Below, one piece after another: positions 61,594 through 63,360 of a DNA stretch of 64,000 bases (the first letter of the stretch is position 1; each line of letters starts with the position of its first letter). The stretch comes from Escherichia coli (GTDB taxonomy: Bacteria > Pseudomonadota > Gammaproteobacteria > Enterobacterales > Enterobacteriaceae). The DNA lies in the NCBI RefSeq assembly GCF_009931435.1, contig NZ_CP043414.1; one strand, 5' to 3'. The notes under the pieces are model-generated. The model saw only the letters and a program-made list of their open reading frames with translations. It made no database searches and was not told where the DNA came from. A program made the position numbers and the translations under genes.

Positions 61594-61641
61594 ATTAGCA
61601 ACAAGCGGAACATCACCTCGCACGGGGTGATGTTCACAAAA

Positions 61642-61815
61642 TCACATTATTTTGATTTTGACATCATAGCTTTCAAGCCCGGTCATTTTTTCTCGTGCGG
61701 TGAAGCGAATTTCAGAGACTTCTTTCCCTGTATTCTTGTTCAGCTCGGCGATTTTTTGCGCGATAAAGTCAGCGATTTCCGTTTCGGCTTGTTTTTTTAA
61801 CTCTTCAATATTCAC
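61642..61815 (-). CDS. gnsA: GnsA (suppressor of secG null), 57 aa, GTG start
   Basis: Hand-translated minus-strand ORF from GTG at 61813-61815: VNIEELKKQAETEIADFIAQKIAELNKNTGKEVSEIRFTAREKMTGLESYDVKIKIM; absent from ORF track (under 60 aa). Confidence 0.8.
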   Translation of the reverse strand: MNIEELKKQAETEIADFIAQKIAELNKNTGKEVSEIRFTAREKMTGLESYDVKIKIM

Positions 61816-62035
61816 TGTTAACCTCTTCTGGTCTTAAAAGACAGCAACACGCCAGTAAGGTGTTGGTTCCCGGTACCCTGGTCAGGTAAGAAATGTTATA
61901 AGCTATCTCCCCTAAAGATTCAATAATCAACAGGTTATCGCTTACTATACATACAGCGTTGAAGAAAAATAAGGCAGATATAAAAAAGGCTCCACGAGGG
62001 AGCCTGATCTTATTTTGTGAAATCCAGCGGCGCAT
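61805..62035 (-). CDS. ymcE: Small protein YmcE (Sfa), 76 aa
   Basis: ORF 61805..62068; start at internal ATG (MRRWISQNKIRLPRGAFFISALFFFNAVCIV...) gives 76 aa; 3' end overlaps the gnsA start by 11 nt. Confidence 0.55.
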   Translation of the reverse strand: MRRWISQNKIRLPRGAFFISALFFFNAVCIVSDNLLIIESLGEIAYNISYLTRVPGTNTLLACCCLLRPEEVNSEY

Positions 62036-62208
62036 GGTCAGTGCGTATTTGCAGCGCGACGTTATCAAAGGTGATCATCGTCGATTTACAAAAAATACAC
62101 TTTGCCCCTAAAGGATTTCGCTCCGTCACATCGAATGCCGATGTGCGGTACTGTGAACCATGACAACATGGACAGCGGAAATGGAGATGTTGAGTAATAA
62201 CGGCAACC

Positions 62209-62421
62209 TTAGAGCGTAACAACGTTCGCTGCCGCGGGACCACGTTGCCCCTGCTCAATAGAAAATTCAACTTTCTGATTTTCGTTCAGCGTGCGGAATT
62301 CATTGCTCTGGATGGCGGTGAAATGGACGAAAACGTCTTTGCTGCCATCATCAGGAGTGATAAAGCCAAAACCTTTATCTGCGTTAAACCATTTTACTAA
62401 ACCAGTCATTTTATTAGACAT
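62209..62421 (-). CDS. cspG: Cold-shock protein CspG (CspA family)
   Basis: 70-aa [24 protein letters not shown] with RNP1/RNP2 motifs. Confidence 0.95.
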
Positions 62422-62706
62422 ATTTTACTTCCTTCATTTTGGGCCTTTCGGCAAACAGGGCTTTAATACAGAAACTACTTAGTGTTCAGGAGAGAGACTC
62501 AAAAGAAGGGGATAATGCCTGATAATGAGAACTACTTTAGTAAACTACTTTGTATGCTGTCTGTCTTTCAAACCGACGCAGCTATTAACGCATGATAATT
62601 GAGATTAAGCAATTTTTATTTTAGCCGTCCGGCGGTCTTAAATATCGCTGGCTTTATTTTATTAACCCCGTATAGTGCAGCGCAGTATTTTCAGTAAGGA
62701 ATTTGT

Positions 62707-62919: not shown

Positions 62920-63360
62920 GATGACGCAGCTTGTTTAAAGCTGGCTGTTTTTATTAAAAAAGCTCAATAGTCAACATCGCACATTATAACAAAAGTTACT
63001 TTCACCCCGGAAAACAAATCCATTTAGCCGAATATCTCTGCACCTAATAGTTATAAATGCTACTTAACAGTCAATCATAGTACCGCTTGAAACTATATCA
63101 CCAACAATAGTTAATAGCTTTCTTAACAATTTTCTTATCTTTAATTTGTATTTTTCTAAGATTTATCTTATGCTCACAAGTCGTATTTCCAGAGGGAAAT
63201 CGTTAACAATCTTATATTTCTCTCTGCGCGCCTTTCCCACTCGCGGTATATAGTACCGACGGTATGCGGAAAGGGAGATTTCACAAGGATGTTATACTCA
63301 AAGTAGACAATCCTGATCTCAAGCGTACGTATTGTCCATGCGATGAATAAAGGAAAAGTT

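Follow-up and report, generated by a model that had tools for sequence, protein, structure and literature searches.

In Escherichia coli, infC and pcnB are genes whose translation initiates at AUU, a codon which is expected to be weak and to be discriminated against by IF3. A second relevant system is found in the Qin prophage of E. coli K-12, where the genes run cspI-ynfQ-ynfR-ynfN-gnsB; ynfQ (b4724) lies 10 nt after cspI, and the coding sequence of ynfR starts 2 nt after ynfQ. The order of a csp gene, a YmcF-like gene, a small hydrophobic ORF and GnsA/B recurs in E. coli and Citrobacter prophages and in phage Tritos as well as in Qin, and the phage cassette is flanked by the lysis genes (holin, lysozyme, DUF2514/Rz) on one side and by the terminase genes on the other. 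YnfQ has been modelled as a rubredoxin-like protein with a metal site in a 2026 paper, and ynfQ is listed among the uncharacterized genes of E. coli K-12. One RNA-seq paper, in which ynfQ is called “cold shock induced,” reports that it changes with cspI and ynfN, and SPA-tagged YnfR increased strongly after cold shock (VanOrsdel 2018).

The names of these small genes have shifted. The “ynfQ” of VanOrsdel 2018 is a 37-aa product encoded between ydfJ and ydfK, apparently now called ynfT, so that study holds no direct evidence for the current YnfQ. YnfU, a Qin zinc-knuckle small protein detected by initiation-complex ribosome profiling and tagging (Weaver et al. 2019, preprint), was considered as a YmcF paralogue and rejected: the gene downstream of cspI is ynfQ (b4724). 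YnfU and YmcF are both small Cys-knuckle proteins, but they are products of different genes, likened by description and not by sequence. PGAP labels the cspI-adjacent gene ymcF or ynfQ, depending on the genome.

The window analyzed here is a 64,000-nucleotide stretch of E. coli DNA (contig NZ_CP043414.1). In it the genes run cspG-ymcF-ymcE-gnsA, within the yccM / gnsA / ymcE / cspG / cspH region, and this cluster parallels the lambdoid-phage late-region cassette cspI-ynfQ-ynfR/ynfN-gnsB. ymcF itself is already catalogued; the link between its start codon and csp adjacency is possibly the sole new point of this work, and we found no publication linking the ymcF start codon to gene context.

Results

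Identity and extent of ymcF

A preliminary description of the window had drawn attention to an 86-aa minus-strand ORF with a Cys cluster at 62010-62270, and the ORF listing of the window contains exactly this frame, with a TTG start and the motif CPCCHG...CIFCK. The suggestion that it might be an unannotated small protein did not hold: the 3′ 189 nt of the ORF (62010-62198) are ymcF, which is K-12 gene b4723, is present in RefSeq, and founds Pfam PF23641. We are therefore confident that the feature is this known gene for a conserved 62-residue protein, with an ATT start after the cspG stop. In a 100%-identical RefSeq record, the ymcF CDS maps to window positions 62010..62198 on the minus strand, with 62 codons followed by a TAA stop at 62010-62012, and the product translates as M/I-TQHLHFRCPCCHGSQYRTSAFDVTERNPLGAKCIFCKSTMITFDNVALQIRTDHAPLDFTK. 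Its counterpart in K-12 MG1655 (1051684..1051872) also encodes 62 aa and lies 10 nt past cspG; the window gene, between cspG and ymcE, occupies the same genomic position. Against PF23641 (“YmcF-like”), the 62-aa product scored 168.5 bits (cut-off 27; E=3.5e-50), with residues 1-62 aligned to profile positions 1-62, and all four Cys and the invariant residues of the core IHFRCPxCxGSQYR...NPxGAKCIFCKxxM are present in the window protein. Region 61600-62700 was found by megablast in 5388 of 5426 complete E. coli genomes; gnsA, ymcE, ymcF and cspG are the four genes annotated under the match in the records listed, and RefSeq names the ymcF product “cold shock small protein YmcF” or “cold-shock protein.”

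All four genes lie on the minus strand. cspG, the upstream cistron, occupies 62209..62421 (ORF and annotation), and ymcF does not overlap it. By RefSeq coordinates ymcE (76 aa) spans 61805..62035, so that ymcF overlaps its first 26 nt (62010-62035). The last gene of the cluster, gnsA (61642..61815; ORF and annotation), matched phrog_2301 with E=1.1e-33.

The annotated initiation codon of ymcF is a non-canonical ATT at 62196..62198. It had been pointed out, correctly, that the frame has no ATG, GTG or TTG from the cspG stop (62209-62211) to the first Cys codon (62172-62174), and an overlapping protein or a chance ORF had been offered as the only options. A third option, a non-canonical start codon, was missed; the gene appeared to lack a start because only ATG, GTG and TTG were considered, while the annotated start is ATT.

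Window positions 63174-63614 contain a separate minus-strand ORF of 146 aa with a high content of Ala, Thr, Pro and Val. Opposite it, a “hypothetical protein” is annotated on the plus strand of the identical RefSeq record at window ~63361-63666, and the K-12 neighbor is the threonine-rich gfcA. This minus-strand ORF is probably the antisense shadow of a low-complexity gene.

The ymcF start codon and csp adjacency

Upstream of the ATT, at a distance of 8 nt, lies the Shine-Dalgarno-like motif TAAGG (62207..62211, minus strand), in which the cspG stop is fused to GG. The same arrangement, a csp stop (TAA or TGA) plus GG, a 10-nt gap and ATT, was found in E. coli, Salmonella, Citrobacter, Kosakonia and an E. 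coli prophage copy. Other loci have ATG at the aligned position, together with a Shine-Dalgarno sequence of their own: AGAGG in Klebsiella, behind a decayed csp remnant, and AGGAG in Leclercia and Enterobacter (no csp).

We surveyed one genome per species (GTDB representatives) for a DNA pattern encoding CPCCHGSQYR. Of the 93 stretches found, 91 could be used, and in these the start codon was tightly associated with csp adjacency. An intact csp ended 9–18 nt upstream at 38 loci, and every one of these 38 copies uses ATT or ATC; nine further ATT/ATC copies have no intact csp there. All 44 copies that start with ATG lack an adjacent intact csp (0 with, 44 without). Fisher’s test on the 91 loci gives p=2e-17, a value which treats them as independent although they share ancestry and are not phylogenetically independent. 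Where csp is not intact, the ATG mostly occupies the aligned ATT position, with a few at +1 or -3 codons. The stop-to-start gap is 9–10 nt, with stop plus GG, in nearly all 38 csp-adjacent loci; in three Serratia/Symbiopectobacterium loci, TAA is followed by AGG/GG and the start lies 17–18 nt downstream. Of the nine ATT/ATC copies that lack an intact csp, which come from Kluyvera, Atlantibacter, Pluralibacter and others, most follow decayed csp-like sequence that keeps the stop plus GG. Both start states occur within Citrobacter, Pluralibacter, Atlantibacter and Kluyvera, and even within the single genome of Enterobacter sp. Bisph1, which argues for repeated switches.

Loci with a csp remnant or an in-frame fusion were also seen. 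In Klebsiella (locus L004, 1340-1490), a disrupted but recognizable csp remnant (…gaatgttgtagcaaatagaggctaacatcATG) lies upstream of an ATG-initiated ymcF, and remnants likewise precede ATG-initiated ymcF in the Klebsiella/Raoultella loci L033, L067 and L069; these remnants show csp decay together with ATG acquisition. In Citrobacter sedlakii NBRC 105722 (locus L086, 2790-3221), a csp-like gene and ymcF are joined in frame as one ORF of 131 codons (…DQGPRGPHFKVTV-MTPHIHFRCPCC…). The fusion arises by a deletion joining a degenerating csp to an ATG-bearing ymcF, and its csp part has lost C-terminal codons and carries altered RNP motifs (VKEFN, VFVPSS). A natural fusion of Csp to YmcF, csp decay, or a misassembly could each account for this ORF.

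Probable transcript and proposed coupling to cspG

The cspG mRNA matches the Rfam cspA thermoregulator RF01766 at 62155..62577 on the minus strand (156.9 bits, gathering 78; E=1.7e-42). The match covers the 5′ UTR and the cspG CDS and reaches the first codons of ymcF. At the other end, a terminator scan identified, within the annotated ymcE CDS, an intrinsic-terminator-like hairpin, AGGCUCC-CUCGU-GGAGCCU followed by a U-run (61979..62005, minus strand), which begins 5 nt past the ymcF stop and is also present in the MFE fold. Since the thermoregulator match and the terminator 5 nt past ymcF bracket the pair, the main unit is likely a bicistronic cspG-ymcF transcript. The cold-inducible cspG promoter and 5′ UTR would give rise to this joint transcript, which would mostly stop at the hairpin just past ymcF, with read-through into ymcE-gnsA. 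A terminator inside ymcE raises the question of how much ymcE expression is read-through.

The hairpin is terminator-like on both strands, and it encodes “...RLPRGAFF...” in ymcE; at the equivalent position, Qin encodes the 21-aa YnfR (“...APSGAFLL...”). It also falls within a match to the Salmonella sRNA family STnc220 (RF02077), and this match comprises the last ~43 nt of ymcF plus the terminator. In the window this match (61972-62052, minus strand) is sub-threshold, at 31.4 bits and E=0.005, and the scores elsewhere (loci L003 1647-1725 and L006 1647-1725) are 105.8 bits in Salmonella (gathering 60) and 47.7 bits in Citrobacter. Because these matches fall at the ends of csp-ymcF, STnc220 looks like the 3′ end of the csp-ymcF transcript; we found no mention of STnc220 in the literature searched.

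Translation of ymcF is likely to occur by coupled re-initiation after cspG translation, yielding a cold-induced zinc-ribbon-like protein. Ribosomes ending at the cspG UAA, which lies inside UAAGG, would re-initiate at the weak AUU codon of ymcF, so that YmcF output would be tied to cspG translation and kept below it. Termination-reinitiation coupling is suggested because UAAGG uses the cspG stop 8 nt before the AUU, because the spacing is fixed, and because ATT/ATC pairs with csp adjacency; a short fixed stop-to-start distance (10 nt in the window) with a Shine-Dalgarno motif at the stop is the arrangement that coupling calls for. Where csp has decayed or is absent, coupling would be lost, and ymcF there carries an ATG and its own Shine-Dalgarno sequence, AGGAG in the Enterobacter group. 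The nine ATT/ATC loci without an intact upstream csp indicate that coupling is not the sole way in which the codon is used.

Those nine loci would also be expected if 30S subunits bound independently at TAAGG and started ymcF at ATT with no re-initiation from cspG, the ATT merely keeping expression low. The 5-nt Shine-Dalgarno-like motif does stand at a suitable spacing for this, and we found no significant occluding structure: a hairpin pairing the spacer with cspG 3′ codons at the start region was not better than shuffled sequence (z=-1.19), so an occluding hairpin is not relied on for coupling. Independent initiation nevertheless appears unlikely to us, given that 38 of 38 csp-adjacent copies use ATT or ATC while none of the 44 ATG copies is csp-adjacent, and that the gap is held at 9–10 nt in nearly all csp-adjacent copies (Serratia and Symbiopectobacterium have 17–18 nt), the stop forming part of the Shine-Dalgarno-like motif or lying directly next to it.

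Starting from coupled re-initiation, one may speculate further that the AUU/AUC start is a device specific to csp-coupled ymcF, which fixes YmcF at a small fraction of Csp translation and could add IF3 sensitivity in cold acclimation, with YmcF acting beside Csp proteins on RNA or the ribosome; we offer this proposal tentatively and hold it to be possible rather than probable. RNA-seq papers report that ymcF changes together with cspG and ymcE; with the description of ynfQ, the cold induction of YnfR and the thermoregulator match upstream, this points indirectly to ymcF as a probably cold-shock-induced gene.

The longer reading frame

The preliminary description had the ORF overlapping cspG out of frame, with its only start codon inside that gene. 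The 86-codon ORF does cover 62 nt of the cspG 3′ end (62209-62270) in a different frame, and the canonical starts upstream are all inside cspG, but there are four of them and not one: in-frame TTG/GTG codons lie 8, 15, 20 and 24 codons upstream of the ATT. An 86- or 70-residue protein beginning at one of these codons would thus overlap the cspG 3′ end out of frame, and such a product might be proposed on the grounds that the E. coli ORF stays open for 29 codons upstream of the ATT and that some Citrobacter, Salmonella and Trabulsiella database entries are 70–71 aa long, with the start placed upstream. However, the 24-codon 5′ extension (62199..62270, minus strand), which lies mostly inside cspG and is absent from the RefSeq CDS, is no part of ymcF. 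Its residues show no conservation, and in Kosakonia, Pluralibacter and others, as well as in the E. coli prophage copy, it is broken by in-frame stops that precede the ATT by 3–8 codons with no canonical start intervening. In Kosakonia and the E. coli prophage copy the stop is a TAG 8 codons upstream, with no canonical start between, so that only the ATT can start there. Where csp is absent, an ATG coincides with the ATT position or lies no more than a few codons from it, and both K-12 and RefSeq curators use ATT. We rejected the 86-aa and 70-aa long forms on the in-frame stops in orthologues, and consider them very improbable.

Annotation and comparative inference, taken together, show ymcF as beginning at the ATT, 10 nt after the cspG stop (the ATT being at 62198-62196 in the direction of transcription), and not inside cspG. 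In the searchable literature we found no direct evidence on YmcF translation or its N-terminus from ribosome profiling, tagging or mass spectrometry, and the ymcF locus is not mentioned in Nakahigashi 2016.

Coding evidence and cysteine conservation

A search of 5.8 billion proteins returned 137 YmcF homologues, all with PF23641. They span the Enterobacteriaceae and lambdoid phages, and come from Escherichia, Salmonella, Citrobacter, Klebsiella, Enterobacter, Kosakonia, Kluyvera and other genera and from phage metagenome bins. The family is narrow; a profile search of 1.84 billion proteins gave 41 representatives at 50% identity, nearly all of them short. In 47 sequences reaching down to 37% identity, C9, C12, Q16, N28, G31, A32, I35, F36, C37, K38 and M41 are invariant, and P10, G14, Y17, R18, S20, D23, P29 and C34 are at least 90% conserved. 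The putative first metal knuckle, C9-P-C11-C12, is encoded by TGT CCA TGT TGT at 62163..62174 on the minus strand and includes the invariant C9 and C12. The putative second knuckle, C34-I-F-C37, is encoded at 62088..62099 on the same strand; here C37, I35, F36 and the adjacent K38 are invariant, while C34 is at least 90% conserved. Divergent family members carry other residues in place of C11 or H13 (CPKCHG, CPHCLG, CPSCGG, CPNCSS), which leaves the classical four-Cys CPxC...CxxC as the putative ligand set. The 21-residue spacing given in the preliminary description is right as the distance from C12 to C34, that is, from the second Cys of knuckle 1 to the first Cys of knuckle 2, and wrong as the spacer between CPCCHG and CIFCK, which is 19 residues. 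The check it had proposed came out in favor of a real small protein with zinc-ribbon-like Cys spacing: the Cys positions are conserved across Enterobacteriaceae.

At the DNA level, pairwise Nei-Gojobori comparison of eight loci gave, for the ymcF core (codons 2-45), dN of 0.04–0.17 with dS >1 or saturated and omega of ~0.03–0.11. The C-terminal 17 codons are fast-evolving in the same eight-locus comparison. Purifying selection on the ymcF reading frame is strong.

ORFs of at least 86 aa number 140 in the window and ~49 in mononucleotide shuffles, and the paired CxxC motif occurs 5 times in the window and 0.45 times per shuffle. ORF length alone is not beyond chance; conservation is the decisive evidence. 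It is hardly credible that ymcF is a chance ORF without a product, its conservation owed to an RNA function of the cspG 3′ UTR such as an STnc220-like 3′ end or terminator. An 86-aa ORF is indeed unremarkable in length, and the 3′ end and terminator do match STnc220 (sub-threshold in the window). That match, however, spans just the last ~43 nt of the CDS, the substitutions are codon-patterned (core dN ~0.1 with dS saturated), invariance falls on Cys, Gly and Pro residues such as make up a metal knuckle, and ymcF persists with its own ATG and Shine-Dalgarno sequence where csp is absent upstream.

Predicted fold and function

AlphaFold2 on a diverse alignment modelled YmcF with a mean pLDDT of 74.5 and ~90 for residues 11-40; a first run with 35 close homologues was discarded (pLDDT 57). 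A Foldseek search with the model returned TFIIE, TFIIB and other zinc ribbons, the best at a non-significant E=2.3; such matches are in keeping with a zinc ribbon. A PDB HMM search found no solved homologue of YmcF (best E=0.015, on the motif only), and in NCBIfam there was only a sub-threshold ECs_2282_CxxC match. Across the PDB profile search, the 1.84 billion representatives, NCBIfam and PHROGs, no remote homologues were found beyond the YmcF family. The probable fold of YmcF is that of a small metal-binding module, zinc-ribbon or rubredoxin-like. A Rieske [2Fe-2S] or five-Cys/two-His site, which CPCCHGSQY might suggest, was rejected, as C11 and H13 are not conserved in divergent members and there is no box I; PetC matches were motif-level only (E 0.07–1.3). 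During cold acclimation YmcF probably works together with Csp proteins, its most likely targets being RNA, the ribosome or the transcription machinery.

Discussion

Genes which start at ATT are invisible to standard ORF callers, and ymcF is a caution in this respect. By tblastn, six of nine phage records contain a YmcF homologue without annotation (records H12-H15, H17 and H19, with mEp460_ev081, 2H10, PhiR63_1, PhiR42_1 and IME1369_01 among them), and PHROGs has no family for YmcF. This annotation gap and the missing PHROGs family are probably due to the ATT start, and phage gene callers probably miss ATT-start genes systematically. The pairing of ATT/ATC with an upstream csp is also a cheap, testable handle on cold co-expression of the pair.

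Set beside described systems, the window gene is closest to ymcF of K-12 (b4723): it is the same gene, in the same position 10 nt after cspG, with a full-length HMM match. The window strain lacks the IS1D found between gfcA and cspH, the only difference from K-12 in neighboring content, and nothing structural differs. The lambdoid cassette of Qin, Tritos and mEp460-like phages shares the gene order, the 10-nt csp-to-ymcF gap and the ATT start. The window copy differs in lying on the chromosome, between yccM and cspH, and in having neither lysis nor terminase genes as neighbors; its ymcE also overlaps the 3′ end of ymcF, whereas the two are separated in the phage copies. The likeness to the TFIIE-alpha and TFIIB zinc ribbons and to rubredoxin knuckles comes with no significant sequence or fold score, and YmcF, unlike those proteins, stands alone as a bacterial or phage protein and has a C-terminal tail that varies. 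With infC and pcnB, ymcF shares the rare AUU initiation codon; it is not known to belong to an autoregulatory circuit. Unlike in those genes, AUU or AUC in ymcF goes with a location 10 nt downstream of a highly translated cistron, and AUG is found in its place when that cistron is lost.
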